This document shows positions 3,734 through 47,035 of a DNA stretch of 63,059 nucleotides, piece by piece. The stretch covers positions 1-63,059 of IMG/VR virus record IMGVR_UViG_3300025879_000020; one strand, 5' to 3'. The notes below the pieces were generated by a model that saw only the letters and a program-made list of their open reading frames with translations, had not been told where the DNA came from and did not search any database. The stretch is from a virus. Lineage: Duplodnaviria > Caudoviricetes. Both the position numbers and the translations under genes were made by a program. Positions within the stretch are counted from its first letter, which is position 1, and every line of letters starts with the position of its first letter.

Positions 3734-3896
3734 GATATTCCACCACTCCTACCCACTCTTCTGGGTTACCGTCGATTCGCCAAATCTCTGCGTGAAGTTC
3801 GGCTTCTTCTTTTGTGTCGAAGGTTTTTACCTGCATGCCAAGTTCAGTGACATACAGGTATGAGTCCTCAAATTTAACCTTGATCGCCCACTTCAT
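3726..3896 (-). CDS. Small hypothetical protein (56 aa)
   Basis: Manual translation MKWAIKVKFEDSYLYV...VEYHE*; fills the gap with overlaps. Confidence 0.55.
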   Translation of the reverse strand: MKWAIKVKFEDSYLYVTELGMQVKTFDTKEEAELHAEIWRIDGNPEEWVGVVEYHE

Positions 3897-4479
3897 CTTC
3901 AGACTCGCCTTCTTCCAACCTTGCTTTGGCTTTATCGGCTCGGAGTTTCATGCGTTCGGCAACTTCGTCTCCATCCATCCAGAGATCCTTATTGTTCAGC
4001 ATCATACCAATTTCGTCTTCAGTTAGGAAATCTTCATAAACCGAACGGAGTAGTTTCTCCGACCATGCGCTTTCGTATTTAAGCTGATCCATCATCTCAC
4101 CACCCTTACCGAAGGTTCCGCCCGAGTAGTTGTGGAACATAAACATCGAGTGTTCAGATACTTCGATTAAGTCAGCCTGTAAGAATATCATAGTAGCAGC
4201 AGACATACACTCACCTTCAACCGAGCAGACAATCGTCGCTGCCGATTCGTTGAGTGCACGCATTAACTGAATTGTAGTTAGTAGGTTGCCTCCAGGAGAG
4301 TTAATGTGAATCTTGATGATATCGTTTTCAGAAGCGTTCCGAATCGTATCGAACCAATCGGTATAGTCCGAAGGGTCAGTTACATCATAAAGATAAAACG
4401 AATGAAGGTGCGTAATTGCCTTGCTGTAAGATCCAATCCCACCAGTTAATTTTGTTAGATCAATTGTTTCGTTTCGCAT
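3874..4479 (-). CDS. clpP: ClpP-like protease
   Basis: IHINSPGG, CMSAAT (catalytic Ser), FMFHN (catalytic His). Confidence 0.85.
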   Translation of the reverse strand: MRNETIDLTKLTGGIGSYSKAITHLHSFYLYDVTDPSDYTDWFDTIRNASENDIIKIHINSPGGNLLTTIQLMRALNESAATIVCSVEGECMSAATMIFLQADLIEVSEHSMFMFHNYSGGTFGKGGEMMDQLKYESAWSEKLLRSVYEDFLTEDEIGMMLNNKDLWMDGDEVAERMKLRADKAKARLEEGESEDEVGDQG

Positions 4480-17727: not shown

Positions 17728-19353
17728 TTATCCCTTATGTTGTTTCCAGAGGTCGGCATCCGCAGTCTTGCGAGTCTTACCGCCCACGATAAATGAATTT
17801 ACACGTGCCAAGCCCCACTGAGTAGGAGTAGTTCCTGGACGATGACCTGTACGCCATGCGGCAACACCACGGTCAAATACCTTCTTGAGGATACCGTATG
17901 AGATACCAGACTTTTCGGCTTTATTCTTTAACGCTTCATCAGTATCTTCGTTGAGCACGCCTTCGAAAGAGGACTCAAATTCTTCGTACGATAAAACCTT
18001 ATTCGGAGTTTTGAAGTTCTTCTTACGCATGATGGTTTTGTTAACCACTTCATACTCGCCATCTTTGTAGTTGATAGCAACAGGCAAGTTTAGGTCAGAA
18101 GCCAAGTCTTTGATAACGGCTTCGTCGTCAGCGTTTTGCTTGATGTTCTTACCCTTATTCTGGGCAATCTTCTTGAACAACTTCTGTAGCTCAGCAACCT
18201 TGATCTCAGGGCTGTTACGTTTATCGTTCATACGATCAACAAAGTGACGAGTAAACTCGACGTCGATATCGAACTTCTGAAGGAGACGGTCGCCGAACTT
18301 CTCTAGGTCGTCAATCTGCTTCTGCGATACTTCTTCGCCAAACATCTTCTTGTACTTCTTAGTGTACTCTGAAGGTTTAGTCTCAGCAGTTGCATCACCA
18401 GGAGCAGGTTTATAAGCATCCGGATCGTCGTCATCCATCTTCGCACCTTTCTCAAAGTGCGAATCGCGAGCCTTCTTAGTAGACTTCGCCTTGATGCCAG
18501 ACATATACTTCTTAGGCTGATCTGTATCTTTATCTTTGGCTTCTTCAATTACTTGAACGTCGGTAACCCACTTACGAGAGCGGATACCGTCAGCAGACTC
18601 AACGATAACATAGTTAGCGCCAAGCATAATAACCTGACCAACCTTATTATCATATTCTACTACGTCGCCTTCCGAAAGTAAATCCCCAGCAACATATGCT
18701 TCTCGTTCTTCAGAAACGGTTTCTAGTTCAACGTGCTGTCGAAATACATGGGACTCGGAAAGACCCATACCTTTACGAACCGCATTGAACAGTTCTTTTG
18801 CTTCTTTAAATCCAGAAGGCAATCCACGAACGAAAGTATCAAAGCTGTTTTCTGAAGCAGCAGCACGCATCTTAGATGCCGACATACCAGTTACGCCTTC
18901 GGCATCTGGATCACGCTCGCCAGCAGATACAACTGAAATCGATTCAAAATCGTAGAATCCATGACGACCATCAACGCCGTTGTACTTGGTTACGAGAGCT
19001 TCGAATTCTTTTACCCTATCAGAACCAACGACCATCGTTACTCGAGTAAACCCTTTATCGTGTAAAGAGGTCATAATGTCGAATACGTTACGAAGCTTCT
19101 TGTCTAGAATAATGTTGCGAGCAGCTTTAGGAAACATCTTCCGCATAAACTTGACTTTGGTTTGGTAGTCAAGTGGGTTCTTCTTAGAGTCCTGAGACTG
19201 AGAAGCATAGATAAAATACTTAGAAGAACCAGCAACCTTAATGACTGCGTCGATTAGCTTCTCGTGACCAACTGTTGGTGGATTGAATCGCCCGAAAGTA
19301 AATACTGCCTCTTCTGGAGCTTCGCTCACATATTGCTTAAACGACTTCATCAT
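17728..19353 (-). CDS. Cytidyltransferase-like (HIGH-family) multidomain protein
   Basis: FGRFNPPTVGH, VVGSDR, GMSASKMR; four more C-terminal modules; MKSFKQYVSE start. Confidence 0.8.
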   Translation of the reverse strand: MMKSFKQYVSEAPEEAVFTFGRFNPPTVGHEKLIDAVIKVAGSSKYFIYASQSQDSKKNPLDYQTKVKFMRKMFPKAARNIILDKKLRNVFDIMTSLHDKGFTRVTMVVGSDRVKEFEALVTKYNGVDGRHGFYDFESISVVSAGERDPDAEGVTGMSASKMRAAASENSFDTFVRGLPSGFKEAKELFNAVRKGMGLSESHVFRQHVELETVSEEREAYVAGDLLSEGDVVEYDNKVGQVIMLGANYVIVESADGIRSRKWVTDVQVIEEAKDKDTDQPKKYMSGIKAKSTKKARDSHFEKGAKMDDDDPDAYKPAPGDATAETKPSEYTKKYKKMFGEEVSQKQIDDLEKFGDRLLQKFDIDVEFTRHFVDRMNDKRNSPEIKVAELQKLFKKIAQNKGKNIKQNADDEAVIKDLASDLNLPVAINYKDGEYEVVNKTIMRKKNFKTPNKVLSYEEFESSFEGVLNEDTDEALKNKAEKSGISYGILKKVFDRGVAAWRTGHRPGTTPTQWGLARVNSFIVGGKTRKTADADLWKQHKG

Positions 19354-24440: not shown

Positions 24441-25127
24441 CTAGTCCGAAATAAATTCGTCAACCAGAGGAAAGATTTTGGCGATTGCTTCGGCACATGC
24501 TCGTGCCACCTCAATGTGCTCCTTCTGAGTACCGTTGCCAGATCGAAGCTCAATAAAGTGAATCCAAGAGCGGATGCTACCTTGCATGTACAACCGTGAC
24601 TTGGTGTTACCTTCAGGCAGTACCGCACGAGCCTGTTCTTTGGCAATACCATTTGAGATAGCCCAGTTGTAAGCACCTTTGGCTGCTCGGATTACGTCTT
24701 GCTGTTTCTCGACCCACATCTTATTCGTTTCCCTAGCATCGGGATCCGTTAGGTCGATCTCAATCGAGTTCTGGCGGTTCTTCGTATCTTGAAGTCGAGC
24801 TTCACGGATAACGAACTGTTCTCCAAAGTCTGCTGGGTTAGCGTACCGTTGCGAGAACTCCTGGAAAGCAAACGAACGGTGGCGTAGCATTTGACGAGCA
24901 ATGTCTCGAGTCGTTTCGATTTCCATAGTAGCCGAAGCCATTTCGAACGGAGACCAATGCTTATGCTTTGCTAGGTAGTTTAGCAGCTTCGGTGCTGTTT
25001 CCGAGTTAATCTGATTAGAAGGGTTCGAGACTCGAGCGCAAAACGCAATCAAATCCTGAACATCTTGTAGACCAACAGATTCTTCGCCTGCGACTGGTTG
25101 TGTGTAGCCAATTAGATTTACTTTCAT
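24441..25127 (-). CDS. thyX: Flavin-dependent thymidylate synthase
   Basis: HWSPFE, RHRSFAFQEFSQRY, EQARAVLP. Confidence 0.95.
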   Translation of the reverse strand: MKVNLIGYTQPVAGEESVGLQDVQDLIAFCARVSNPSNQINSETAPKLLNYLAKHKHWSPFEMASATMEIETTRDIARQMLRHRSFAFQEFSQRYANPADFGEQFVIREARLQDTKNRQNSIEIDLTDPDARETNKMWVEKQQDVIRAAKGAYNWAISNGIAKEQARAVLPEGNTKSRLYMQGSIRSWIHFIELRSGNGTQKEHIEVARACAEAIAKIFPLVDEFISD

Positions 25128-29324: not shown

Positions 29325-29353
29325 ATTATACTATACTTCATCTAAGAAGTAAA
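29325..29353 (-). promoter_or_regulatory. T4-type early promoter (primase)
   Basis: TTTACT-N17-TATAAT. Confidence 0.8.
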
Positions 29354-29698
29354 GTCCTTTTTCATAAACTCATTGATGTTCATCGCTTTGTCATCAACGT
29401 AGTAACTTGAGGCATATGGCTTACCGAATACGAGTTCGTCATATGGAACCTCGTATTCTGCTAACCAGTCCTGGGTTACCACGCCAACATCAGCAACAAT
29501 CTTGCCAACATCACCGTTGTGAGTTAACATTCTTCTCGCTGAGCTGATAATTATATAGTATCCCTGATCCTTCAGGGTTTGCATCTTCTCAATAAGAGAA
29601 ACGTTTGGTTTTGCGAGCCTATACTTACCGTGTGTTTCCTTAACATCATGGTTAGGGTAACAGATAGTGTCATCCAGATCAAAGACTATACTTTTCAA
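29342..29698 (-). CDS. HAD phosphatase (capsule-biosynthesis phosphatase-like)
   Basis: FDLDDTI, SSAR, FGKP, YVDDK; TTG start after GGAG. Confidence 0.85.
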   Translation of the reverse strand: MKSIVFDLDDTICYPNHDVKETHGKYRLAKPNVSLIEKMQTLKDQGYYIIISSARRMLTHNGDVGKIVADVGVVTQDWLAEYEVPYDELVFGKPYASSYYVDDKAMNINEFMKKDFTS

Positions 29699-31190
29699 TG
29701 TTATTCTCCACGTAGTCAATGAAGCGTTGTTGGCGCTTCTCATCATCATAATGTAGCGGAACGCAACTAGCAATAAGAAGCAGCCCACCGCCGAGGATTA
29801 GGTCAACTGGCAGGTTGTACTCTCGGAGTTTACGAACGAAGATTTCTTTAACATCCTCGTTATGAGTAACGTTAGAAACCATACCGTTGTAACCATGGTA
29901 CAAGTCGTGCGCCAGTTTAGCCCAATCGTACAGGTCATCACCAAGTACTCCAGAATGCTCAGAATAAGAACCACGTGGGTCTAGTAGTCTGATCTGATCA
30001 GTTTGCTGATCGTACATGATGTTACCGAAGTGCAAATCACCGTGCATACCAGAGATAGGTTTAGACCTAACATAACACGCTTCGGATAGAGCAATTATAC
30101 TTGATTTTGTCGAAGAAGTAAAGCTAGTATTATCAACCCTTTCGGTAGTTTTACCGACCCACATTTCGCGAGATAACTCGGAAAAGTTCGAAACGAACCT
30201 AACATCCTCGCAGCGATTGTTGAAGAACTTCATCTTAACACGGAATACCTTATCTATGATGTACTCCCAAACAGATGGCGGAAGATTATCATATAACATA
30301 AGGTCGGACAATAACGTACCAGACTCGTATGACATAATCAGGTCAAACTCAGTATCAAATACTCTAGGAACAAACATAGATTGATGCTGAGATAAGTTAC
30401 GATACCATTCCTTCTCGAGCTGTAAGGTTCGAACAGATTCTGGCTTGTGATAATCAGGAGACTTACGAATAGTTCCAAGCTCCGGATCATACTCCATCGT
30501 ATTGAAGTCACGACTCTTTAGGTTCAACAGCTCGGCGCAAGTTTTGTAGAAAGATGGCAGATTGCCAATATCATACCACTTGTTAGTCGTTACTGACTTG
30601 AACGAACGGGTGTAGTCGTTAATGTAGTTTATAAGAGCTTCCGAAATCTCATAACCTTTAGCGTTGTTAAAGGCATTCTTGGCTTGAGTACCATACTCGA
30701 AAGAGTAAAGACCAACCAGAGCAACTGAGTTTGGAACCATGTAGCTCGGCTTGTCGTGAAACTCGTTACCGTCCCACATACACCAAGCAGAGTGATTATC
30801 ATCTTCTTTGTTCAGTAGGAAATCTGTACCCCAAGGCATATCTTCTTCTAAGATAATAGCGTCGCCGAGCCACACAACCAGAGGCAACTCAGGTTTAGAG
30901 AGTTCGTTGATACCCTTCATGATAGCATCACGAGGTCCATTTAACGAACCTTGCTTAACGAACCTAATGTCAGGGTGCTTGAGTTTACAGTACTGACGAA
31001 TGTCGTCAAACGCACCATCTACGATAATGATCTCGTTGATGTTCGCAGTCTTTTTCGCCTGCTCAACGATATAATCCAAGCATGGCTTACCGTTTACACG
31101 CACCATAATCTTAGATGTGTTAGAAGATAGCGGACGGAGTCGGGTTGCCGACCCAGCCGCAGGGATAACTAAATTAACCAAAGAACTCAT
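29679..31190 (-). CDS. Sugar-phosphate nucleotidyltransferase fused to an APH/choline-kinase-like domain
   Basis: IPAAGSATRLRPLS..SK, WLGD, WYDIG; HGDLHFGNI, LDPRG, DWAKL. Confidence 0.85.
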   Translation of the reverse strand: MSSLVNLVIPAAGSATRLRPLSSNTSKIMVRVNGKPCLDYIVEQAKKTANINEIIIVDGAFDDIRQYCKLKHPDIRFVKQGSLNGPRDAIMKGINELSKPELPLVVWLGDAIILEEDMPWGTDFLLNKEDDNHSAWCMWDGNEFHDKPSYMVPNSVALVGLYSFEYGTQAKNAFNNAKGYEISEALINYINDYTRSFKSVTTNKWYDIGNLPSFYKTCAELLNLKSRDFNTMEYDPELGTIRKSPDYHKPESVRTLQLEKEWYRNLSQHQSMFVPRVFDTEFDLIMSYESGTLLSDLMLYDNLPPSVWEYIIDKVFRVKMKFFNNRCEDVRFVSNFSELSREMWVGKTTERVDNTSFTSSTKSSIIALSEACYVRSKPISGMHGDLHFGNIMYDQQTDQIRLLDPRGSYSEHSGVLGDDLYDWAKLAHDLYHGYNGMVSNVTHNEDVKEIFVRKLREYNLPVDLILGGGLLLIASCVPLHYDDEKRQQRFIDYVENNIEKYSL

Positions 31191-31989
31191 CAAGTGTTGC
31201 TCCAGATCTATCAATAAACGCCTTCTTCCAACTGATTACTGCTTCTACACGAGAGGTAGAATCTTCGTCGGTTGTCCAGGATGCGTTTTCTTTTACAGTC
31301 AACTTAACCACTCCAGGGAACTCACGTTGAAGTGCCTTGTAGCACATCTCTTGTAGTTCACCGTTACGGAAGGTAGAGTTGCCTCCAGGCTTACCGTGTG
31401 GGTGGTTAAAAGCATAATTATATATCACAGCATTCTTCATACCAGCCTTCAACAAAGATAGGATAGCATAGAAGTCTTCAAACAGTTTGATTTGGTTGTC
31501 TTTTCTATACATACCGTCGAAGGTAACACCATTATCGTTGAACATCTTGGTGTTGATACCATAGCAAGAGTACGAACGTGTAATCTCAACTAGATCTTCC
31601 TCGATACGGTTATTGCCAGCTCGGTCAGAAACGCCAACCCAAGCATACTCGTCAAGGTTTTTCTCAATAGTATCTAGCATGTCGAACCACTGTTCTTCCG
31701 ACTCTAGTTTCTTGAGCTTCATCTCATCGTCACGATACATAAAGGTACAGTTGTCATCAATGATAAGAATCTTACCGTTGTCACCAAGATTTACCAAACG
31801 CTGGCGGACATCAGCAATACCGTCAGTCATACCGATATCTAGAACGTCAGCATCAGGATAGTTTTCTTTTAAGATATCTACACGATCGCTTCGGGTACAC
31901 AGGGTGGTTCGCGAACGAACCGCCTCTGGCATATTGTCCCAACAGCGTTGGTTATCTTCACGCATTAATGTAGGGATTAAGATTCTCAT
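31174..31989 (-). CDS. GT-A glycosyltransferase (TET-associated/GREB1-JGT-like)
   Basis: ILIPT..R, GIADVRQ, IIDDN (DxD-like), LFEDF, PGGNS. Confidence 0.75.
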   Translation of the reverse strand: MRILIPTLMREDNQRCWDNMPEAVRSRTTLCTRSDRVDILKENYPDADVLDIGMTDGIADVRQRLVNLGDNGKILIIDDNCTFMYRDDEMKLKKLESEEQWFDMLDTIEKNLDEYAWVGVSDRAGNNRIEEDLVEITRSYSCYGINTKMFNDNGVTFDGMYRKDNQIKLFEDFYAILSLLKAGMKNAVIYNYAFNHPHGKPGGNSTFRNGELQEMCYKALQREFPGVVKLTVKENASWTTDEDSTSRVEAVISWKKAFIDRSGATLDEFFG

Positions 31990-33392
31990 CCAAAGAAGTC
32001 CTCCAAACTTGCTTTCTCTTCAACAGCAGCTGGGTCATTACGCTCAGCCATTTCACGCCCACCGTTTTCCAGTAGGTAGTCATACCACTCTTGGCTATGC
32101 CACATACCTGGACTTACACCGTTCCAACGATCTCGCCATTCGGAATGCTCTTTATTCAATCGACGGTCGTCAACGAACTTACGTCGAAGCTGTTCGTAAT
32201 CCCAATCGCCAAGCTCTAGCATATCCTCACGGAAGTAGAACACAAGAGACATACGGAGTAGGTCATCTTCGCCAGACTCTGGGTTTTCGATAGGCATGTT
32301 ACCATGGATAATACGCATATTGTCAATCAACAGTAGGTCTCCTGGACGAACGTTAATCGCAGCACGAACTTCTGGAGTTACCAAGTAACCGCCTTTCCAG
32401 TCCTTACCTTCCGGAGAGATTACCGTTAGGTTAGAGAAACCTTCATTCAACGAGCCAGCATCACGATGGCAAGCCATACGGGCATTACGATCTTTCATTG
32501 TAGTGTTTACAGTGACAGTCGTAAAGGTAGTATCCTCGCCGATAAGGAACTTCTTATCAATCGAGTCAGCGCACTTCTTCTGAGCAGCATACCGATCTGG
32601 CAGTAAGTCCGCCATAGTCTGGTCTAGCTTACGAGCAAACGGATAACACTTCTCGAAGGTCTCACGGTTATTCTCAACGTGAGAAGTTGCTCGACCATAC
32701 GGAATACGTGGATAACGACCATAGAAACCTGTAATACCTGACCAGAGAGGGGTGGCATAAGAGGTGTCAGAGATCATCGTATCTTGTAGCTTCTGAGCAT
32801 ACTCTTTTGACTGCGAGACCGACATAAACTTCAGCCGTTCCATAGCAACATCAAAGAAGCCATCATATGTATCGAACTCAGCTTCGATCTTAGAACGAAG
32901 CCACACTTCTCCTCGTGTTTCATATTGAGCAACCTTGTGCTTCTCAATAATCTCTTCGATGGGGTCGTCCCCATAAACACCTTGACGAGAACCGCCGATA
33001 TAGTAGTCTAGAATGTCACGATGGAAAGGGGTAACCCAATCTCGCCCACCAGACTTCTCGGCACGTGGACCTGCCGCCATGCCTCGGTTATTTGATTCAC
33101 CAGCAGCAGAGAACAGCCCTTCAAAAGCACCATTTTGTTCAGCCTGAGTGAATACATTCTTACGGAATTTAAACGCACAACGATCTTCGGTTAGTTCACC
33201 ATTACCAGTAACGTCCGAAGATGGTAGGTAGAAGTCAGCGTCAGAATCAACAAGAATGTCGTACGAACTCTCATCGGCATACTTACCGATAATGTCCTCT
33301 TGGCTCACAGTGAACAAAGCGACATACACTTCTTGACCTTCAGAGCCAACGCCCTTTTGCCACTTATACCCACCAAACTCAACTATTTCCAT
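31986..33392 (-). CDS. TET/JBP-family 2-oxoglutarate/Fe(II) methylpyrimidine dioxygenase
   Basis: FTTVTVN, ACHRDAG (HxD), IHGN (distal H), RMSLVFYFRE. Confidence 0.85.
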   Translation of the reverse strand: MEIVEFGGYKWQKGVGSEGQEVYVALFTVSQEDIIGKYADESSYDILVDSDADFYLPSSDVTGNGELTEDRCAFKFRKNVFTQAEQNGAFEGLFSAAGESNNRGMAAGPRAEKSGGRDWVTPFHRDILDYYIGGSRQGVYGDDPIEEIIEKHKVAQYETRGEVWLRSKIEAEFDTYDGFFDVAMERLKFMSVSQSKEYAQKLQDTMISDTSYATPLWSGITGFYGRYPRIPYGRATSHVENNRETFEKCYPFARKLDQTMADLLPDRYAAQKKCADSIDKKFLIGEDTTFTTVTVNTTMKDRNARMACHRDAGSLNEGFSNLTVISPEGKDWKGGYLVTPEVRAAINVRPGDLLLIDNMRIIHGNMPIENPESGEDDLLRMSLVFYFREDMLELGDWDYEQLRRKFVDDRRLNKEHSEWRDRWNGVSPGMWHSQEWYDYLLENGGREMAERNDPAAVEEKASLEDFFG

Positions 33393-33447: not shown

Positions 33448-33852
33448 TTATTTATCCTGATCTCCCAATTTAAGGGTTCGGGCGAGGTCTGGTTCGGAAA
33501 ACCCTGGACCCTTTAGGATCTTACCATCCTCACGATAGATCGGCTTACCGTCCGCTCCCAACTTAGACATATTTGACCGCTGTACTTCAACGAAGCAGTC
33601 ATCAAGGTTAATACCGAATGCGTGACCAGCGCCATACGTGACGTACAGAATGTCGGTTAGCGCATCAGCGACTTCAACGATATCGTTGTTATCAAGAGCT
33701 TCGATCAGTTCCTCAAGTTCTTCCTTGATCAAATCGACTCGAAGGTCTTGTACTTCTTTTGAAGGCAGCTCAGGTTCTGAACGAACCTCTTGCCCAAAGG
33801 CATCCATAAAGACTTTAACTTTAAGGAAGTTGGTTCTATAGTAAGGCATCAT
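33448..33852 (-). CDS. MazG-like nucleotide pyrophosphohydrolase
   Basis: EELEEL...EVADALTDILYV, SNMSK; start trimmed. Confidence 0.85.
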   Translation of the reverse strand: MMPYYRTNFLKVKVFMDAFGQEVRSEPELPSKEVQDLRVDLIKEELEELIEALDNNDIVEVADALTDILYVTYGAGHAFGINLDDCFVEVQRSNMSKLGADGKPIYREDGKILKGPGFSEPDLARTLKLGDQDK

Positions 33853-36368
33853 ACAAAAAAGTCCTCTAGGCTGACAGTATCTTCTTCGTTCCAACCGATG
33901 GCAGCCAGTATCGGGCGGACGACTTCAAGGAACGCCTTCTCAAACTGAAGGTCGTAGTCAATATATTTATGGATTTTCAATTCTTCGGGTAGGTAATCCG
34001 GAAACGCAATTACATTCTCCTTTATCGGGTTAGGGGTCTTAAGATAACAGAACTTGATCTTCTCGCCGTCTTTTATTGTAGCGTATCGTTTAAGGTTATT
34101 TTCCTGTAGCGCCTTATTATATAGAATAGAACCACGCACGTGAATGGGGCAACCTTTCTTGTACACCGTCGACCGATCCATCCAGTCGGTAACCTTTGAA
34201 ACTCCACGGGGAAAGGCGATCTGTTCTGGAGGCAGCTTAGTGAAGTGATCTTTAAACTGCGCAATTGCTTTCTGCGTATCTTTCTCGGTTCCAGTGACAA
34301 TCACCTTAAACAGAGCCTTTAACGCTTCACGGCAAGACATAGGAGTCGAAGACTTAACAGCTTCAATACCCATAATCTTTAGTTTCGGCTTGGCATACTG
34401 TACGCCTTCATTGTTGTGTACGTTTAGTATGTATCGCTTCTTCGCAGTCCAGATACCAGCATCGGCAATAGCTTCTCGAGCCATAACCATCTTATTCTCG
34501 TACGCATCCATGTACTCGGCAAGTTGATTGTAAGAACGTTCTAGCATAGGTTCAAACTGCTCACGACATACCTTATCAATCAAAGCAACAACTTCATCTT
34601 TTGGTTTCTTATCCCAACCAAGTTTATTAACCAAAGGTTCAAAATCGAGGTATAGGGAATCTGTATCGATAGCTATAACATGATCACCTTTTTCTTGACC
34701 AAGTATCTTATTAAGGAAAGTGTTTACGCTATGCTCTGCCCATCGGATCGATAGCTGACCAGATAATGTAATACCTTCAGCAATACGCAGGTCAAAGTAT
34801 CGGAACCAACGGTTACCAATCGCACCATAAAGTGAGTTCATCATAATCTTGTAAGCCATCTGCTCGTTATCGAGCGTGGTGATGGTTTTCTCTAGACGAT
34901 ACACTTCAGTATGGTTGCTCTTATCAACATGCTGTAGTTCTTGTTCGGCAGTAAGCATTTGCTTCTTAACAATCTTACGACCAGCATACATTTCCTCAAC
35001 CAGTTTAGGAATAATACCACGGATATCCTTACGATAGTGCGTACCGTTAGCAGCCATTGTACAATCAGGTCTAATCGATTCTGGCTTTCTAAGGGAAAGT
35101 ACCGAATCAACGTTCACTCCAGGAGTAATATCGTTTACAATGGTTTCCGGACTCATGTTGTACTGCATAATAAGGTGCGGATACAGTGAGTTCAAGTCAA
35201 AGGAAACCACCCAAGAGTGGCGACCAACTCGAGGTGCCTTAACATACCCACCAGGAAAGTCTGATTTAAACTTATCTTCTTTTGGCGGTGGAGCAACCTT
35301 ATCGTCGTGTAGAACCCGATAGATGTAGGTATCCCAGATACCAGTAGTACCAAACGCCTCTGTATAGTTTACGCCAGCCTTATACGCTAGTGTCATACAA
35401 AGGGTAATCAAGCCCATCTTATCTTCCATACGGTCAACCAACTCAACGTCTTTGATGTTGTAGTCGATAAACTTCTGGTGATCTTCTTTGTACAGGGTAT
35501 AAAGGTTACCGTGTTCTTCGTATGATAACTTCTTCTCGCCGAGAACTACGTGGGCGATGTGATCGAGTTTGTACGATTCCTCAGCTGTGTAGGTAAACTT
35601 CTTGTACAGGTCAAGGTAGTCAAGCAACTCGATACCCATCAACTCGAACTTCTGCTCGGTGCGGTTCATTATCTTGACTTCACGCTCGTTGATCTTACCC
35701 CAAGGTGATAGCTTCTTGACCATATCTTCGCCAATAACACGAGACATACGGTTTACCAAGTACGGAATATCAAATAGAGTAGAGTTCCAGCCAGTTACAA
35801 CATCGGGCATATTGCGTGGGCTAGACCAGTGGGTTACGAAATCCATTAGCAAACGAGCTTCAGACTCGCACTTATAGTAAACGACCTGATTCTCTTTCAT
35901 AAGTGACTTAGATACGTCGTAGTCGTCGAGACCCCATACATAGTAAGTATTATCTATGTTGTTCTTTAACGCAATAGAGATTACGGGATAGTTTGCTTGC
36001 CTTGGCTCGGGGAAACCTTCATCCGAAGCAACCTCAATATCGATAGTAGTTACGTTAATACTCTCGCGATTGAAGTCGATCTTTCCAGGATATTCTTTCT
36101 GAACATACTGGGCAAGGTAGTTGGTGTTGCCATACACCTTGAAGTTCGAGGCTTCTCCGTATTGTTGGATAAACTCGCGAGCTTCTTTCATTGTGTCGAA
36201 GTCGATATCCATTAAGGAGATACCGTCTAACGACTTCCAAGTACCCTTCTCGGAAGGTACAAATAGGGTGGGGGAGAACTTTACTCGTTCTGCGAATCGG
36301 TGGTTGTCTTTGTAGCCACGAACCAGAAGATCGTTACCAAAACGAGATACATTAGTGTAGAATTTCAT
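33849..36368 (-). CDS. 43: Family B DNA polymerase gp43
   Basis: DIEV, FDIPY, DLNSLYP, KIMMNSLYG, DTDS; C-terminal SLEDFF. Confidence 0.97.
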   Translation of the reverse strand: MKFYTNVSRFGNDLLVRGYKDNHRFAERVKFSPTLFVPSEKGTWKSLDGISLMDIDFDTMKEAREFIQQYGEASNFKVYGNTNYLAQYVQKEYPGKIDFNRESINVTTIDIEVASDEGFPEPRQANYPVISIALKNNIDNTYYVWGLDDYDVSKSLMKENQVVYYKCESEARLLMDFVTHWSSPRNMPDVVTGWNSTLFDIPYLVNRMSRVIGEDMVKKLSPWGKINEREVKIMNRTEQKFELMGIELLDYLDLYKKFTYTAEESYKLDHIAHVVLGEKKLSYEEHGNLYTLYKEDHQKFIDYNIKDVELVDRMEDKMGLITLCMTLAYKAGVNYTEAFGTTGIWDTYIYRVLHDDKVAPPPKEDKFKSDFPGGYVKAPRVGRHSWVVSFDLNSLYPHLIMQYNMSPETIVNDITPGVNVDSVLSLRKPESIRPDCTMAANGTHYRKDIRGIIPKLVEEMYAGRKIVKKQMLTAEQELQHVDKSNHTEVYRLEKTITTLDNEQMAYKIMMNSLYGAIGNRWFRYFDLRIAEGITLSGQLSIRWAEHSVNTFLNKILGQEKGDHVIAIDTDSLYLDFEPLVNKLGWDKKPKDEVVALIDKVCREQFEPMLERSYNQLAEYMDAYENKMVMAREAIADAGIWTAKKRYILNVHNNEGVQYAKPKLKIMGIEAVKSSTPMSCREALKALFKVIVTGTEKDTQKAIAQFKDHFTKLPPEQIAFPRGVSKVTDWMDRSTVYKKGCPIHVRGSILYNKALQENNLKRYATIKDGEKIKFCYLKTPNPIKENVIAFPDYLPEELKIHKYIDYDLQFEKAFLEVVRPILAAIGWNEEDTVSLEDFFV

Positions 36369-38630: not shown

Positions 38631-39233
38631 CTATCCTCGCAAAGCCTGTGCCAAAGATTGCATACGCATAACATCCATTACAATATCATGACGGCAGTCG
38701 TGCGCTATAAACTTCTCTTCTAGACCTTCAGGAATAAAGGAGTTCTTTAGCTTATGCCCGAACGCCATACCATCAATTGTAGAACGAGTATCCCGAACGA
38801 TCCAGAACGGGAAAGGATCTTTCTTACCAGCAGCCTCTAGTAACTCACGAAGCAGAATCGGGTCAAAGGTATTACCACGAGTATATGCTTTCTTAAGAGC
38901 CGAGAAGTTGATATTATCAAACAAGAACTGCTCGAGTTCAGTAATAGACTTATCCTCATCAGAAGGTTTTAATACAACACGAGCTTCTGCTGGTTGAGAC
39001 TTCCACCAACTAAGGGTTTCTGGGTCGATCTTTCGGTTGTAAATCTCTACCTGCTCGGCAACATCGAACTTAATGTACCTTGTTTCACGAAGGAGTTCTT
39101 CGTAGCCGTAGGGGTTGTCCGAAGATAACCGAGACTCGTCATAAGAAACGAGCGCCAAGTTAATAGCAGCCCCACGAATAGGGTCTTGACTCAAGGTCTC
39201 AAAATCATAGATTACAGTATTCATCATTTCCAC
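38631..39233 (-). CDS. dexA: DexA-like 3'-5' exonuclease
   Basis: DFETL, RGNTFD, RDTRS, H..RHD..MD. Confidence 0.85.
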   Translation of the reverse strand: MEMMNTVIYDFETLSQDPIRGAAINLALVSYDESRLSSDNPYGYEELLRETRYIKFDVAEQVEIYNRKIDPETLSWWKSQPAEARVVLKPSDEDKSITELEQFLFDNINFSALKKAYTRGNTFDPILLRELLEAAGKKDPFPFWIVRDTRSTIDGMAFGHKLKNSFIPEGLEEKFIAHDCRHDIVMDVMRMQSLAQALRG

Positions 39234-40171
39234 TCCGCAACAGTCATAATCTCAGTCAAACACGCAACAGTATTTAGCTCGTGATCAGCTACAAAGGCAT
39301 CTTGATACGCATACCGACCAATAATCAGTACAACGTTAGGTACGGACTGCGGGAGCAAGAAGTTAGTCGCCTGATCAAAGATCTTACGAAACAGGACTGT
39401 TGCTTCTAAGTCTGAGTTGTTAGTAACCCAAGCACGAACCGACTTATAGTTCCTATCTTTCATGTAACCCATGAGAGTTTTGAAGTTCTCGTCGGATACG
39501 TTTACTAAGATACCTGCGTCGATCTTACCAGAAAGAGAATACCGCTGACATTCATTAAGCATACGTCGGAAGTCGGGGAAGTGCTTCTGAACCAACTCGG
39601 CAACCGCTGCTCTATCATACTCGATACCTTCTTGTCCGAGGATATTTGTAACACGCTTAAAGATTTCCGCTGCGATAGCTGGCTTCTCGTCTTTAGGGAT
39701 ACCGAACTCATACACTGAGCATCGAGAATGTAGTGGCTCAATGATCTTGTTCTTGAAGTTACAGGTTAAGATAAAACGACAGTTGTTAGAGAACTCTTCA
39801 ATGAACCCACGAAGGGCTGGTTGAGTCGACTGCGCATTAAGGTAATCTGCCTCATCTAGGATCACAACCTTGTAACCGCCTTGTAAGGATACGGTTGACG
39901 CAAACTGGCGGATCTTGTTTCGTAGGGTATCGATGTTACCATCTTCCGATGCGTTCACGATAATGTGATCGAGGTCTAACTCGTTACACAGCGCTTTGGC
40001 GACGGTAGTCTTACCGACACCAGCCGTTCCAGCGAAGAGCATGTTAGGTAGCTCTCCGCCTTTAACGATTTCAGAAAAGGTAGACTTCAGTCCTTTAGGT
40101 AGGATAGTATCTTCGACAGTTTGTGGTCGATACTTTTCAACAAAGAGGAATTCATTTGATTGGTTTGACAT
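39224..40171 (-). CDS. 44: Clamp loader ATPase gp44
   Basis: VEKYRP, GTAGVGKT, DEAD, SRC. Confidence 0.95.
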   Translation of the reverse strand: MSNQSNEFLFVEKYRPQTVEDTILPKGLKSTFSEIVKGGELPNMLFAGTAGVGKTTVAKALCNELDLDHIIVNASEDGNIDTLRNKIRQFASTVSLQGGYKVVILDEADYLNAQSTQPALRGFIEEFSNNCRFILTCNFKNKIIEPLHSRCSVYEFGIPKDEKPAIAAEIFKRVTNILGQEGIEYDRAAVAELVQKHFPDFRRMLNECQRYSLSGKIDAGILVNVSDENFKTLMGYMKDRNYKSVRAWVTNNSDLEATVLFRKIFDQATNFLLPQSVPNVVLIIGRYAYQDAFVADHELNTVACLTEIMTVAEWK

Positions 40172-42101: not shown

Positions 42102-42344
42102 TTACTTAGTTTCGAGGGTTACTTTAATTGACCCAAATCCGATAGCATCGGTCATCTTTTGAAAGGCTTCTTCTAGCTCTTCAGGGTTGGTTACTGAAGT
42201 TCGGAAGGATAACTCTTCCCAGCCTTCTGCACCGTAGTCGGTGTCCGCTGTTTCTGCTCTCAGGTCGAGAATATATTTACTCATTACATTAGTCTCCAAA
42301 GCTAGAGTTTTTCTCAAGGGCAACCCAGTAGGTCGCAGAAGCAT
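42102..42344 (-). CDS. Hypothetical protein (start uncertain)
   Basis: ORF downstream of gp45; likely starts at MSKY. Confidence 0.5.
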   Translation of the reverse strand: MLLRPTGLPLRKTLALETNVMSKYILDLRAETADTDYGAEGWEELSFRTSVTNPEELEEAFQKMTDAIGFGSIKVTLETK

Positions 42345-42978
42345 CAGAGTTTGAGAACTCCGAGATCAACTTTGACGAGACCGAAACAGTCATACTACCA
42401 GGAAGGAACTTGAAGTTGTTGATGTTGAACACCAACTTAAACGCACCATCGGGGCGAGATTCTACCGAACCCAAATCCATACGGAACGTGTTCGCAGTAG
42501 ATACCTTAACATCAGTCACTTCAATACGAACGTCGCCACCACCTTCTTCGCCGATCACAACCACATCTGTAGAAGAGATAGCATTAGCAGCTCGGCGGAT
42601 AGCCTGCATCTGGGCGTCAGTCAACGAAAACTTAACTTCGCAATCTGGCATAGTTAGGTCTTTTGTAGGACTGGTCAAGATAGAGGCGTCCGAGAAATAG
42701 TAACGATAGGACTGGCTATCAGCGCCAGACAAGAGGACAGAATTGCCATCTTCCTCAAACGTCAAATCAGGTTCAGTCAACGCACCATAAATGGTTAGGA
42801 ACTGGTTCAAGTCATAGATACCCACCGACACTGGGAACGTTTCTTCTACATTAGCAGAAGCCAAGATCGTCTTGCTTTCAGCAATAGTCTTCAGGGTGCT
42901 ACCAGTATTGATGACCAAGTTAGGGTTAATGCTGGCGAAGTTTCGCAGCACTTCCAGGGTGTTAGTGGATAGTTTCAT
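42289..42978 (-). CDS. 45: Sliding clamp gp45
   Basis: MKLS..TL..L.NFASIN, GIYDLNQFL, YWVALE. Confidence 0.93.
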   Translation of the reverse strand: MKLSTNTLEVLRNFASINPNLVINTGSTLKTIAESKTILASANVEETFPVSVGIYDLNQFLTIYGALTEPDLTFEEDGNSVLLSGADSQSYRYYFSDASILTSPTKDLTMPDCEVKFSLTDAQMQAIRRAANAISSTDVVVIGEEGGGDVRIEVTDVKVSTANTFRMDLGSVESRPDGAFKLVFNINNFKFLPGSMTVSVSSKLISEFSNSDASATYWVALEKNSSFGD

Positions 42979-43005
42979 AATATCTCCATTAAGTTTACAA
43001 GTCAT

Positions 43006-43494: not shown

Positions 43495-44667
43495 TTAGAA
43501 AATGTCATTTACAATATCATCTATAGAAGCTCCAGTTGGCTCAGAAACGTCAGCCACGGGAGCTCCTACTTCAGCGTCGACCTTAGTGTACAGGTCACGG
43601 AACGCTTCTTTGGTATCATCGTCGAAGCGATTAATACAAAGGTCGATTGCCTTCATCTTATCGTTAAAGATAGCAAAGGTTTGGACGATATGGCAGAGGC
43701 GACGAGTTGAAATGATCTCGTCAACGCCACCGTCCACATAGGTCTTGCGGATAATCTCAGACCAAATAGTAAGGTTAACTGCGAAGTCTTCGTCCATGCG
43801 ACCATATTTATCCATATGGTTCAGGACGATTTTCTTCTCAATCGAAGAGGTTGGGTAAGGCTGCTCAATAGTGATTGAGAAACGCTCCAGGAACGCTTCG
43901 TCAATGATGGTAGCCGATACGAACTTACCATCATCAGATCCCTGCCCTTTAGTGTTAGCAGTAGCGATAACATTAAAGCCAGGAGCAGGTTTAACAACCT
44001 CGCCAGTCTTTTTGATCATCACAGGCTTACCTTCTAGCACACCCTGTAAAGCCATCAAACGGTTAGAAGAACGGTCGATCTCATCGATCAGCAGGATCGC
44101 ACCTGCCTCCATCGCTTTGATAACTGGACCTTTCGAGAAAACGGTCTCGCCGTTAATCAAACGGAAGCCACCGATCAAATCATCTTCATCGGTTTCTGGC
44201 GTAATCTGAACACGGACATACTCACGCTTCAGTTTAGCACAGGCTTGCTCAACCATCATGGTTTTACCATTACCAGAAAGACCAGTAATGAACGTGGGGT
44301 AGAACATGCGAGACTCAAGGATAGTGCGGAGGTCTTTGAAGTTACCCCACGTCACATAAGTAGAATCAGAATCGGGAATGTAGACCTCGTCATTTGACAA
44401 AGAATGGATAGCCGATACCATAGCAGGAGCAGGAGCAGGAGCAACTGCCTCAGCCACAGCTTTAGTACGGAATGGCATGACCTTGGCTTCAAGGTTCCAG
44501 ACGCCACGGGAAATACGATCAGCCTCTTTGTCAAGCATCTTATCGTAAATCGAAGACAGGCTGTAGCCCAACTCGTTGGCCACTTCATTCAACTCAGCGT
44601 TGCGGAAAGAACTCTTGTCGGGGTAGCGAGCAGCGAGAGCTTTCAAAAAGGGAGCAAAGTTATTCAT
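43495..44667 (-). CDS. MoxR/CobS-like AAA+ ATPase
   Basis: GLSGNGKT, ETDEDDLIGG, LIDEID, TANTKG, STRR. Confidence 0.9.
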   Translation of the reverse strand: MNNFAPFLKALAARYPDKSSFRNAELNEVANELGYSLSSIYDKMLDKEADRISRGVWNLEAKVMPFRTKAVAEAVAPAPAPAMVSAIHSLSNDEVYIPDSDSTYVTWGNFKDLRTILESRMFYPTFITGLSGNGKTMMVEQACAKLKREYVRVQITPETDEDDLIGGFRLINGETVFSKGPVIKAMEAGAILLIDEIDRSSNRLMALQGVLEGKPVMIKKTGEVVKPAPGFNVIATANTKGQGSDDGKFVSATIIDEAFLERFSITIEQPYPTSSIEKKIVLNHMDKYGRMDEDFAVNLTIWSEIIRKTYVDGGVDEIISTRRLCHIVQTFAIFNDKMKAIDLCINRFDDDTKEAFRDLYTKVDAEVGAPVADVSEPTGASIDDIVNDIF

Positions 44668-44705
44668 AATATAATCCTCAAAGTCAATCAATCAATTCAG
44701 GAGCT

Positions 44706-44734
44706 ATTGTACCCTAACTGGGCAGGGAAGTAAA
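44706..44734 (-). promoter_or_regulatory. T4-type early promoter with phased A-tracts
   Basis: GGGGTTTACT-N17-TACAAT. Confidence 0.75.
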
Positions 44735-44775
44735 CCCCCAAAACGAACTTTTTTTCGTTTTTTTCAAATTATTTT
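44727..44775. repeat. About 49 bp direct repeat, copy 1
   Basis: Matches 47089-47137 with 2 mismatches (read by eye). Confidence 0.8.
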
Positions 44776-44786
44776 GTTATAAGCAT

Positions 44787-44801
44787 ATAACTAATACTTA
44801 T
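44787..44801. promoter_or_regulatory. LysR-type box
   Basis: ATAA-N7-TTAT preceded by TTAT-N6. Confidence 0.45.
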
Positions 44802-44812
44802 GACGTACCTCC

Positions 44813-47035
44813 TCACGCCACCATTTCGGTGAATTTGGTAACCAGGACTCGGTTACCCTTCTTAGAGCCAGTGAACTTCTTAAACTGGCGAGTGAGCTCA
44901 CCCTTCTTGGCGCCAGCCAGAACGTCAAACTCCTCATCGGTCGGGTCGAGTTCCTTACCACCCTTGATCACAAACATACGGTCGTAACCCATAGCTTCGT
45001 CCATAACGGAGAACTTGTTTTTGCGGAAGAACCTGACTTCTTCTTCGATCTTCTCAAAGCTGTCAACATTTCGCTGAATCATCCAGCGAGCTTCGTGGTT
45101 ACGGCTCACCAAGAAGTAGTTAATCACAGAACCAGAGGTGTACTTGCGGTACGCATTAATCAGCTGTTCGGTAACACCGAAGTTATCGTGGTACTTCTTG
45201 TCGATTTTCAGACGACGACCGTTAACAGTGAGATAGTAGTAAGTGTCGCGATATCCGATGTAACGATCACGCACGTTGACCTCATTACTAGAGCCATCGG
45301 TCAAGAACACGGTGTTCAGCTTGTCAACGTTGTAACGGCTCTTGAACTTGTCAGCCAATTTGAAGGCACAAAGGACAGTCGTATCCAGAGGTGTACCACC
45401 CAGTTGCTCAAAGCGAGAAGCAACTTCATACCAGTTACCCCAGCGAGTCGTAAGAGCCATAGACTGGAAGTAGAGGTCTCGAACAGCACGGTCGTATTCG
45501 GCGCGAGACATACGGTTATTAATCAGCTCAAAGATGCTAACGTCGCTCAAGTCGATATTAGTCTTAATGTTCTCTCGAGTGATAGGAGTTGCCCGATACT
45601 CGTTGGAATAGTTAGAAGTGAAGCCATACACCTCAAACGGGATGTTCACTTTACGGCAGAACATGGCGAGGTTGATAATCTGGCGGAGGACTGAAGAAAT
45701 TGTATCCGCCATAGAACCAGAATAGTCAACGTACATAATCATGCCGTGGTTCTTGGCGTCAGCCATCACTAGGTTACGAGCAAAGATGTCATCGTTGTAC
45801 TTGTAAGAGTGAACCTTCGCCATGTCAAGCGTACCAGAACGAGCGGTTTTGGCACGAGAATAACGGAAGGCAGCTTTCTTGATTTCAAACTCCTTCGCCA
45901 TGGTAGAAACTACCTTATCGGTGTCAGCGACAAACTTCTTTAATTCAGCTTGCCTTTCGGGGTCACCATAGACGGTCTCCCCAGGATACCTAGGATTGTA
46001 GTGACCATATTCTTTAGCACATTCGTCACGAGAAGCGAAAACCTCTTTGTACCCAATAACAACTTTCTCAACGTCAGAGGCTGTTATTTCGGTAGCATTA
46101 ACTGGAATGCTACCGTCATCTTTCGTCTCGACGAGCTTAGACTCATTAGAGCGGAAAGCGTCATCAGTTTCAACCGTAACGTCGTTCTCGGAAGCACCGC
46201 CAGCGGACTTAGTCGATACAGACTGGTTGTCCTCGGCGGGTTCTTCTTCTACCTCTTTAGCAGGCTGGTCACTGCTTCCTTTACCGTCCGAAACATCTTC
46301 GTCAGACTCATCTTCAGCATCAGGATCGATATCTGAAGGTTGATCAGCCGAATCTCCTTTTTCAGTTCCTTCTCGATCTCCGTCTTCTCTTGTTTCATCA
46401 TCTTCTTCACCCCCAATAGATTGTTCGCCCAGATAACTAGCTTGAGGGAAGTTAGGAACTTCTTGGTCAGGCTGGTCGGGCTGATCAACAGACGCTTTGT
46501 AAAACTCGCACAACTCACGAGCTGCTTCAACAACGTCACCCCACGTAACGACCGAGAAACACTTCGCTACAATAGGAGCTTCCTCGTCGCTAAACTTGAT
46601 GTCAACCAAGTCGTTCAGCTTGGCTTTAATATTGATGCGGTCAGGCAGACCGTAAGAAGTTAGGTCACGATCTTTGGTGCCAAAGAAGTTTTCTTTAAAG
46701 AGGACGTTATACCCTTCTTTGAAAGAGCGAACCAAACCAGGATAGCGAGCCTGAACAGCTCGCTCGATGCGGATGTCTTCGATGATGTTAAGGAAAGCAC
46801 GTGGGATACCTTCAACGTCGGTGGCGGCATCGTGCCAACCATCAGCTGGGGTAAACAATGCGTGACCAACCTCGTGACCAATCAAAAGGTCATGAACAGA
46901 AGCACCCATGTCTTTCCAAAGAGGGATATTAAGTACACGATTCACTACGTCAAAAGAGGCAGTCCTGAAGTTACCTTCAACCACCTCAATATTTTCTTTC
47001 GCCAGTAGGCGAGCCAGCATAGACTTAGAACTCAT
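44813..47035 (-). CDS. CobT-like protein: HEXXH domain, acidic linker, VWA domain
   Basis: HEVGH, NIIEDIRIE, YVDYSGSM (MIDAS), GGTPL, FLTDG. Confidence 0.85.
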   Translation of the reverse strand: MSSKSMLARLLAKENIEVVEGNFRTASFDVVNRVLNIPLWKDMGASVHDLLIGHEVGHALFTPADGWHDAATDVEGIPRAFLNIIEDIRIERAVQARYPGLVRSFKEGYNVLFKENFFGTKDRDLTSYGLPDRINIKAKLNDLVDIKFSDEEAPIVAKCFSVVTWGDVVEAARELCEFYKASVDQPDQPDQEVPNFPQASYLGEQSIGGEEDDETREDGDREGTEKGDSADQPSDIDPDAEDESDEDVSDGKGSSDQPAKEVEEEPAEDNQSVSTKSAGGASENDVTVETDDAFRSNESKLVETKDDGSIPVNATEITASDVEKVVIGYKEVFASRDECAKEYGHYNPRYPGETVYGDPERQAELKKFVADTDKVVSTMAKEFEIKKAAFRYSRAKTARSGTLDMAKVHSYKYNDDIFARNLVMADAKNHGMIMYVDYSGSMADTISSVLRQIINLAMFCRKVNIPFEVYGFTSNYSNEYRATPITRENIKTNIDLSDVSIFELINNRMSRAEYDRAVRDLYFQSMALTTRWGNWYEVASRFEQLGGTPLDTTVLCAFKLADKFKSRYNVDKLNTVFLTDGSSNEVNVRDRYIGYRDTYYYLTVNGRRLKIDKKYHDNFGVTEQLINAYRKYTSGSVINYFLVSRNHEARWMIQRNVDSFEKIEEEVRFFRKNKFSVMDEAMGYDRMFVIKGGKELDPTDEEFDVLAGAKKGELTRQFKKFTGSKKGNRVLVTKFTEMVA

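Follow-up and report, generated by a model that had tools for sequence, protein, structure and literature searches.

A long-form TET/JBP dioxygenase from a T4-like phage replication module: a predicted thymine-modification pathway and a polymerase-type C-terminal tail

TET/JBP-family phage dioxygenases that act on thymine (T) in DNA have already been described. Both ParB-independent and ParB-dependent T-dioxygenases were established by O'Toole 2026 (PMC13229309), which gives a C5-methyltransferase as co-occurring with only 6% of 5mYOX pathways. In E. coli DNA, TET89 oxidized some 10% of T (Burke 2021). Where a TET_JBP gene has no methyltransferase nearby, its product is described as probably making 5-hydroxymethyluracil (5hmU) in Lee 2021 (PMC8989533) and in the Pyle 2023 preprint. 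This study concerns a gene of this family at positions 31986-33392 (minus strand) of IMG/VR record IMGVR_UViG_3300025879_000020; the entire record of 63,059 bases was analysed and is referred to as the window. An earlier note on this DNA had suggested that the substrate of the enzyme may be thymine, in a base-J-like chemistry, and had stated that characterised phage TETs usually act on 5-methylcytosine (5mC). The latter statement is out of date, as T-dioxygenases have been shown experimentally (Burke 2021 for TET89; O'Toole 2026). The inference about thymine is sound but was published between 2021 and 2026, and it is not new because others have argued in print from a missing methyltransferase to a conversion of T to 5hmU (Lee 2021; Pyle 2023).

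The phage T-dioxygenases of 5mYOX clades C1 and C2 (TET89, 5mYOX97, 5mYOX176) share with the window enzyme the TET/JBP fold, the catalytic residues and the lack of an adjacent C5-methyltransferase. Frequent neighbours (glycosyltransferases, AADT, P-loop kinases and GATases) are shared as well, as is post-replicative action on DNA, which is predicted for the window enzyme. When compared by description with clade C2 of O'Toole 2026, the window enzyme likewise has no ParB partner and no adjacent C5-methyltransferase, but it is 468 amino acids long whereas clade C2 members have about 290-300. It also differs from clades C1 and C2 in having a PolB-like tail, which is found in only 7/81 short forms, and in sitting within a T4-like replication module. 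A second group consists of clusters that combine a C5-methyltransferase, a 5mC dioxygenase and a glycosyltransferase (Burke 2021 clades A/B; Pyle 2023/2024), and these resemble the window in that PolB lies upstream and a glycosyltransferase downstream, with genes for Hsp20 and an AhpC-type redoxin close by. The neighbourhood of Burke clade II/B, with PolB upstream and a glycosyltransferase or P-loop kinase downstream, is also that of the window (PolB at 33849-36368, TAGT glycosyltransferase at 31174-31989), but the parallel C5-methyltransferase found within five genes in Burke clades A/B is absent from the window.

Outside these clusters, the kinetoplastid base J pathway (JBP1/JBP2 and the glucosyltransferase JGT) also uses a TET/JBP hydroxylase followed by a glycosyltransferase that acts on the new hydroxymethyl group, and phage GT-A enzymes are reported to match T. 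cruzi JGT structurally (Pyle 2023 preprint, available text). Unlike JBP1/JBP2, the window enzyme has no J-DNA-binding or SNF2 domain by Pfam, the comparison being one of domain make-up, and unlike in base J the sugar may not be glucose because the phage encodes its own donor pathway. In the 5-HMUDK/AADT systems of phages ViI, M6, SP10 and PhiW-14 (Lee 2018/2021), AADT and a P-loop kinase build thymidine hypermodifications from 5-hydroxymethyldeoxyuridine (5hmdU) (Lee 2021, PMC8989533, available text), and AADT, P-loop kinase and GATase genes fill the window's TAGT slot in about half of the dioxygenase family. However, in those phages a dUMP hydroxymethylase produces 5hmdU ahead of replication, a step that a DNA dioxygenase would replace here, and the window cassette is of the glycosyl type rather than the aminoacyl type. 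In T4, the polymerase gp43 together with gp55 and gp33 bind the gp45 sliding clamp via highly similar acidic-hydrophobic C-termini (PMC2988020, available text), and the alpha-glucosyltransferase binds gp45 as well (PMC13216743, available text). Clamp tethering through such a tail is proposed here too, but it is a dioxygenase and a TAGT-family transferase that would act as ligands, and the base would arise on the polymer instead of entering the DNA as hydroxymethyl-dCTP (hmdCTP).

The data suggest that the best reading of this locus is a pathway from thymine to 5hmU to glycosyl-5hmU, and thymine is considered the likely native substrate, though with some reserve. This reading is preferred because a C5-methyltransferase is nearly absent from the family and because the nearest dioxygenase lies beside thymidine-hypermodification genes. 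In the proposed mechanism, ThyX would give ordinary dTMP, there being no source of 5mC in the record, and the dioxygenase would hydroxylate thymine in newly made phage DNA to 5hmU. TAGT would then put a sugar on the 5hmU hydroxyl to form a base-J-like glycosyl-5hmU, using as donor a nucleoside-diphosphate-activated sugar from the adjacent nucleotidyltransferase/kinase-like fusion and the HAD phosphatase, and the likely purpose would be to shield phage DNA from host nucleases. The dioxygenase and TAGT are probably tethered to the gp45 clamp and working on DNA just behind the replisome, because their tail is the same as that of the phage DNA polymerase. A wider proposal is that in T4-like phages the long-form TET/JBP dioxygenases, and with them TAGT and some AADTs as their partner DNA transferases, may be clients of the gp45 clamp through a polymerase-type tail. 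This would couple thymine hydroxylation and glycosylation to the replisome, would be a third mode of 5mYOX control beside the stand-alone and ParB-dependent modes, and in the phage of the window would yield base-J-like glycosyl-5hmU with a phage-made sugar. Taken whole, this wider proposal is tentative: quite possible, but short of probable.

By sequence and gene order, ORF (open reading frame) 31986-33392 is a real and intact long-form TET/JBP gene in a T4-like replication module, encoding a predicted Fe(II)/2-oxoglutarate 5-methylpyrimidine dioxygenase. It matches Tet_JBP (PF12851) over residues 238-389 with 58.6 bits (cut-off 34.9) and phrog_24024 with E 3.9e-141, and apart from a weak TauD match Tet_JBP is its only Pfam domain. 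In an alignment of 32 full-length homologues H309, D311 and H363 were invariant and R380 was present in at least 90%; in a profile search of the PDB (E 5.9e-8) the same four positions correspond to HxD...H...R in human TET2, which was the sole match. A single-sequence search of the PDB gave merely weak clavaminate-synthase-type matches. The AlphaFold2 model (pLDDT, the predicted local distance difference test, 88.2; pTM, the predicted template modelling score, 0.82) was closest by VIA-align to TET2 (Z 20.8, root-mean-square deviation (rmsd) 4.1, 276 residues aligned), followed by CMD1 (Z 19.6), NgTET1 (Z 18.7, rmsd 4.3, 245 aligned) and CcTet (Z 17.6), with AlkB/FTO at 13.8 or less. Foldseek concurs, with TET2, CMD1, NgTET1 and CcTet as the top structural matches. 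The enzyme has an intact iron and 2-oxoglutarate site in a TET-like fold.

The Protein Atlas gave only unnamed viral Tet_JBP clusters, and a search for longer homologues returned nothing, which is weak evidence. Matches of about 1,100 amino acids were at first taken for JBP2 but turned out to be TET_JBP+TAGT fusions. Orthologues in GenBank entries KU682439, KF301602, MG450654 and MN698246 are labelled "SNF2 DNA repair protein" although they have no SNF2 domain, a label that is presumably annotation carried over from JBP2 matches. A residue that might mark T rather than 5mC as substrate was considered at the position of TET2 H1904 and rejected. The window enzyme has R388 there, as do 158/159 long and 83/85 short relatives with Arg, and the rare His variant is not linked to a methyltransferase: P0144, which has it, comes from a complete 305.8-kb genome (G050) without a C5-methyltransferase, whereas two methyltransferase-linked dioxygenases (in records L088 and L092) retain Arg.

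The last residues of the dioxygenase (458-468, ...KASLEDFFG, encoded at 31989-32021) form a PolB-like, putative gp45 sliding-clamp-binding motif. PolB ends in ...VSLEDFFV (33852-33875) and TAGT in ...ATLDEFFG (31177-31200), all on the minus strand, and these three were the only ones among the 402 window ORFs of at least 40 amino acids with a clamp-type tail, defined as L-[DE]-x-[FLM]-F followed by no more than two residues. The proposed docking platform is a gp45-type sliding clamp of 238 amino acids encoded at 42289-43005 on the minus strand (PF09116, gp45-slide_C, E 1.1e-5), and a clamp loader is encoded at 39224-40171. When distinct sequences across 153 loci were counted, the tail was kept in 117/125 dioxygenases, 28/30 PolB proteins and 10/14 TAGT proteins. 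It was also present in 11/64 AADTs (21 with a looser pattern). No tail was found in 255 distinct sequences of nine other families (P-loop kinase, GATase, nucleotidyltransferase, HAD, MazG, primase-like, UvsX, gp41 and Hsp20), the sugar-nucleotide enzymes (0/9 and 0/7) among them. Among database homologues of the dioxygenase, 117/149 long forms, 7/81 short forms and 0/14 fusions have it.

A complex of three copies of the window gp45 with dioxygenase residues 409-468 was modelled and scored 0.65, compared with 0.02, 0.02 and 0.01 for three controls; the 0.65 mark is reached by 51/78 solved complexes and by 2/108 mismatched pairs. The runs agreed in at least 69% of contacts with a partner pLDDT of at least 56. 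The interface comprised residues 458-468 and was centred on L463 and F466, which were placed with low error in one clamp subunit; the tail contacts clamp residues 41, 44-48, 115-120, 194, 197, 212-214, 227 and 229-233. The model supports docking of the dioxygenase tail on gp45 but does not show binding. Two points weigh against giving it more than that. The high score may stem from resemblance to the solved RB69 clamp-peptide complex and not from binding by the window copy, and a trimer plus peptide is unlike the calibration set of the complex tool.

It is also conceivable, if rather unlikely, that the L-[DE]-x-F-F tail does not serve to bind the clamp, but binds another replisome protein or serves as a degradation or export tag, with the enzymes acting free in solution. 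PMC2988020 notes that not all T4-related phages conserve this likeness between the tails of their clamp ligands, and a memory of the RB69 structure behind the complex model would favour such an explanation as well. However, the dioxygenase tail is near-identical to the tail of the phage's own PolB and the motif is restricted to DNA-acting enzymes, as shown by its absence from the nine other families. Additionally, the model placed L463 and F466 with low error in one clamp subunit, and the controls scored close to zero. Clamp tethering is therefore still the preferred reading of the tail. Literature searches and the O'Toole and Pyle texts (supplements left out) gave no mention of such a tail on a TET/JBP enzyme, and the tail on the dioxygenase and TAGT appears to be new. 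If the tail works as proposed, it would give a simple reason why some phage dioxygenases fail when screened in a heterologous host, and could explain the inactivity of some ParB-less clade members expressed alone in E. coli. It would also show how a virus modifies its whole genome during replication.

Two groups of unlabelled ORFs that adjoin the dioxygenase in other loci also end in a clamp-type tail. One consists of L068:11291-12619 and 12 similar ORFs of about 445 amino acids, and the other of L041:4429-5085 and five similar ORFs of about 220 amino acids. Both are candidates for further DNA-acting tailoring enzymes.

The window enzyme belongs to a large long-form ParB-less subfamily. A scan of viral contigs found at least 574 loci encoding relatives of the dioxygenase, mostly fragments of T4-like phages. 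The loci used here were the best 80 of at least 599 pattern matches, so the survey of 107 records with a long-form dioxygenase is a sample and not a census. Cultured relatives are available in the complete isolates Phage C48C1, Stenotrophomonas phage DLP6 and Caulobacter phage Cr30, whose orthologues are 64%, 52% and 39% identical to the window enzyme, respectively. No ParB (PF02195) match was found in these three genomes or the window (0/4 records).

A six-frame profile search of the window gave no match to PF00145 (DNA C5-methyltransferase), to PF00303 (ThyA, dCMP/dUMP hydroxymethylase and dCMP methylase family) or to PF02086 and PF01555 (N6/N4 methyltransferases). Likewise, no methyltransferase was found among the 47 window ORFs of at least 148 amino acids by Pfam or among 10 of those without a Pfam match by PHROGs, and no remnant turned up at E 0.01 or below when the window was searched by tblastn with the C5-methyltransferase of L088. 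The PF00145 negative is meaningful because the same search detects phage C5-methyltransferases in two related records (176.6 and 135.9 bits). These results bear out the claim of the earlier note that the 63 kb hold no C5-methyltransferase or hydroxymethylase. Its claim that thyX would supply ordinary dTMP also stands, as the ThyX flavin-dependent thymidylate synthase ORF (24441-25127, minus strand) exceeds the TIGR02170 equivalog cut-off (157.7 bits against 87.9) and is the single PF02511 match (E 1.4e-46) in the six-frame search.

The earlier note had cautioned that a C5-methyltransferase could lie outside the window, and this was checked on the relatives. PF00145 was absent from the window and the three complete isolates (0/4), from the 49 longest records among the best 80 loci (0/49, L071 left out) and from 50 further records (0/50) that include two genomes of 168 and 162 kb with direct terminal repeats (G065 and G071). 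The only matches came from four records obtained with a side query (2/4), through which alone L088 and L092 were found; the complete 305.8-kb genome G050 was among those without a match. Overall, 105/107 records lacked PF00145, and it was found in none of the six complete genomes (C48C1, DLP6 and Cr30, and the genomes with direct terminal repeats G050, G065 and G071 at CheckV 100%). The sole PF00303 match of Cr30 is a canonical ThyA.

The genes around the dioxygenase differ among relatives, and this variation bears on the substrate. When Pfam was run, in the best 80 IMG/VR loci, on the pair of ORFs closest to the dioxygenase on either side, AADT was found 17 times among 139 upstream ORFs, and GATase_6 16 times, Ploopntkinase3 13 times and TAGT 12 times among 119 downstream ORFs. 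Labels were then assigned around 121 distinct dioxygenases with profiles seeded from Pfam-labelled examples. AADT and/or P-loop kinase 3 lay within 6 kb of 61 of them, and in 41 of these 61 AADT, kinase and GATase occurred together. A TAGT of the window type accompanied 11/121, and 41/121 had none of the labelled genes. The seed-built TAGT profile is narrower than Pfam's, so the glycosyl-type counts are lower bounds, and the 41-member unlabelled group includes other TAGT subtypes. A 17-member cluster that bears the tail fell among the unlabelled although its member L054:11326-12129 is a Pfam TAGT match. By Pfam, TAGT was present in 12/49 family records.

In a FastTree phylogeny the window dioxygenase was sister to that of record L033 (support 100), which at about 71% identity was the nearest among the relatives listed. 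L033 is syntenic gene-for-gene with the window in the order PolB-MazG-TET-[cassette]-primase-like-UvsX-gp41, but at L033:11435-17283 it has seven ORFs (GATase, AADT, P-loop kinase 3 and four unknowns) where the window has TAGT, nucleotidyltransferase and HAD. By gene order, one cassette is cleanly exchanged for another while the position stays the same. The glycosyl label was scattered on the dioxygenase tree, with 7 changes for 8 rows and clustering no greater than for shuffled labels, so glycosyl-type and aminoacyl-type cassettes appear interleaved, which fits one shared intermediate. Complete DLP6, which has no C5-methyltransferase, has the same set of TAGT, nucleotidyltransferase, HAD and TET as the window. 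Within this subfamily, as judged from synteny, the place of the dioxygenase in the replication module is fixed and the tailoring cassette, glycosyl or aminoacyl, is exchanged around it. Cassette exchange on one conserved dioxygenase argues for a common 5hmU intermediate. The earlier suggestion of a thymine substrate is thus supported on context, by the missing methyltransferase, the AADT/kinase/GATase slot of L033 and the TAGT/GREB1 family membership of the neighbouring transferase.

Metagenomic fusion proteins join the same activities in one chain: Tet_JBP with TAGT in P0170 and P0203 (1123 and 1145 amino acids), with AADT in P0230 (1281 amino acids) and with P-loop kinase 3 in P0228 (658 amino acids). 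None of these four has a clamp-type tail.

Some other arrangements were observed in the family. L087 (the jumbo-sized genome G050, 305,782 bases with direct terminal repeats, no C5-methyltransferase) has a divergent long-form dioxygenase, with HYD for HRD and His where the window enzyme has R388. Genes for AADT and a P-loop kinase come after it, and terminase and tail-sheath genes adjoin. In Cr30 a protein with a PF18909 dATP/dGTP diphosphohydrolase N-terminal domain (L003:12187-12714, E 5e-34) lies between the dioxygenase and AADT. In C48C1 the dioxygenase is followed by a 344-amino-acid protein and a UDP-galactopyranose mutase (L001:13416-15448), neither with the tail, which suggests a galactofuranose-type modification in that phage.

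Several points weigh against a thymine pathway in the window. About two thirds of the phage genome lies outside the record, whose completeness CheckV puts at 35%, and a C5-methyltransferase could be there. No residue was found that distinguishes T from 5mC when the TET2 H1904 position was compared across long and short relatives. AADT-type enzymes and P-loop kinases are not an exclusive marker of thymine modification because they also occur in some contigs that combine C5-methyltransferase and TET (Burke 2021, available text). Records L088 and L092 pair a C5-methyltransferase with a cassette of the window type (TAGT 56-60%, nucleotidyltransferase 47-50% and HAD 59% identical), in a layout matching Burke clade II/B, where TETs are active 5mC dioxygenases according to the available text. 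Lastly, the APH and Choline_kinase matches (residues 364-433) of the 511-amino-acid fusion that would supply the sugar donor are weak and under the Pfam threshold.

The main rival built on these points is a 5mC route, in which a C5-methyltransferase in the unsequenced two thirds, or methylation of sites by the host, would provide 5mC, the dioxygenase would convert it to 5-hydroxymethylcytosine (5hmC) and TAGT would glycosylate the product. This route is unlikely but still live. L088 and L092 are T4-like phage contigs syntenic with the window, with dioxygenases 46-47% identical to the window enzyme, and each has an intact-looking C5-methyltransferase (L088:7333-8532; L092:3780-4952) directly after PolB and upstream of the TET-TAGT-nucleotidyltransferase-HAD set. 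These methyltransferases have recognisable motifs that we take to be the PC and ENV motifs. This pairing is the strongest evidence for the route. Burke 2021 assigns such a layout to clade II/B and reports that clade A/B TETs make 5hmC, and the characterised phage T-dioxygenases oxidize 5mC too (O'Toole 2026; available text in both cases). The incompleteness of the record also leaves room for the route.

However, the 5mC route has to be reconciled with PF00145 being present in 2/107 records and 0/6 complete genomes. The interval between PolB and the dioxygenase, which holds the methyltransferase in L088 and L092, contains MazG alone in the window, with no remnant. The dioxygenases of L088, L092 and L063 form one tight, long-branched subclade that is separated from every remaining row of the FastTree phylogeny by 1.34 substitutions per site or more and lies outside the window's 26-row starred clade. 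The L063 dioxygenase is 92% identical to that of L088, yet its record spans PolB to the primase-like gene without a methyltransferase. Additionally, the complete genome of DLP6 holds this cassette but no methyltransferase.

Less likely still is the explanation that 5hmU, or further oxidized forms of it, is the end product or a regulatory mark, while TAGT and the sugar genes serve the host envelope or a protein. Site-selective, epigenetic-like roles are raised in the available text of O'Toole 2026, TAGT is present by Pfam in just the 12/49 family records, and the donor pathway resembles capsule and teichoic-acid enzymes. However, the start codon of TAGT lies on the stop codon of the dioxygenase in a four-base overlap (ATGA), and the two genes are translationally coupled. 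The existence of TET_JBP+TAGT fusion proteins also argues against separate roles, as does the PolB/dioxygenase-type tail of TAGT, which the sugar-nucleotide enzymes lack. A substrate other than a 5-methylpyrimidine in DNA, such as N6-methyladenine (6mA), on which fungal CcTet can act, or RNA, is very improbable: 6mA-DNA-bound CcTet is among the structural matches and C48C1 has a Dam-like methyltransferase (PF02086 in 1/4 and PF01555 in 0/4 of the window, C48C1, DLP6 and Cr30), but neither methyltransferase family was found in the window, DLP6 or Cr30, the context is pyrimidine-hypermodification machinery and the clamp-type tail points to duplex DNA.

In the thymine pathway preferred here, the remaining steps would be carried out by the genes that follow the dioxygenase on its strand, in the order TAGT, nucleotidyltransferase/kinase-like fusion and HAD phosphatase, with MazG and PolB upstream. 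The TET-associated glycosyltransferase TAGT (31174-31989, minus strand, 271 amino acids) matches PF20691 with 34.8 bits (cut-off 27.5) and phrog_842 with E 7.4e-40. It adjoins a TET/JBP gene, and its family also includes the GREB1 glycosyltransferase domain. The fusion (29679-31214, minus strand, start codon uncertain) joins a sugar-1-phosphate nucleotidyltransferase (PF00483, E 6.3e-14, residues 16-124) to an APH/choline-kinase-like domain in 511 amino acids. Its NCBIfam matches were nucleotidyltransferases only, each under its cut-off, and it is presumed to make the activated sugar donor. The HAD-family phosphatase (29342-29788, minus strand) resembles the EcbF/BcbF capsule-biosynthesis phosphatases, with 88.7 bits to TIGR01689 (under the cut-off of 162) and E 4.4e-21 to phrog_1238. 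Its true start probably lies inside this ORF because the homologues in L088 and L092 have 121-122 amino acids. Upstream, a MazG/PRA-PH-type nucleotide pyrophosphohydrolase (33448-33894, minus strand, PF01503, E 9.7e-23) alone separates the dioxygenase gene from that of the family-B DNA polymerase PolB, the gp43 homologue (33849-36368, minus strand, PF00136 and PF03104).

The record is linear, and nearly all of its genes are on the minus strand. Its identity as a fragment of a T4-like phage is evident from Pfam matches to the structural proteins gp23 capsid, gp20 portal, tail sheath and large terminase, and to the replication and repair proteins PolB, gp44 clamp loader, gp45 clamp, gp46/47, UvsW, UvsX and gp41. 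Ribonucleotide reductase, RNase H, PhoH, Hsp20 and an AhpC-type redoxin were also found. A possible auxiliary gene for NAD salvage (17728-19353, minus strand) encodes a protein of 541 amino acids that combines DUF5824 with a cytidylyltransferase-like domain of the NMNAT type. A reprolysin-like M12B metallopeptidase (1253-2161), a ClpP-like protease (3874-4479) and a CobS/CobT-like pair made up of a MoxR-type AAA_5 ATPase and a 740-amino-acid phrog_459 partner (43495-47035), all on the minus strand, are auxiliary genes typical of aquatic T4-like phages.

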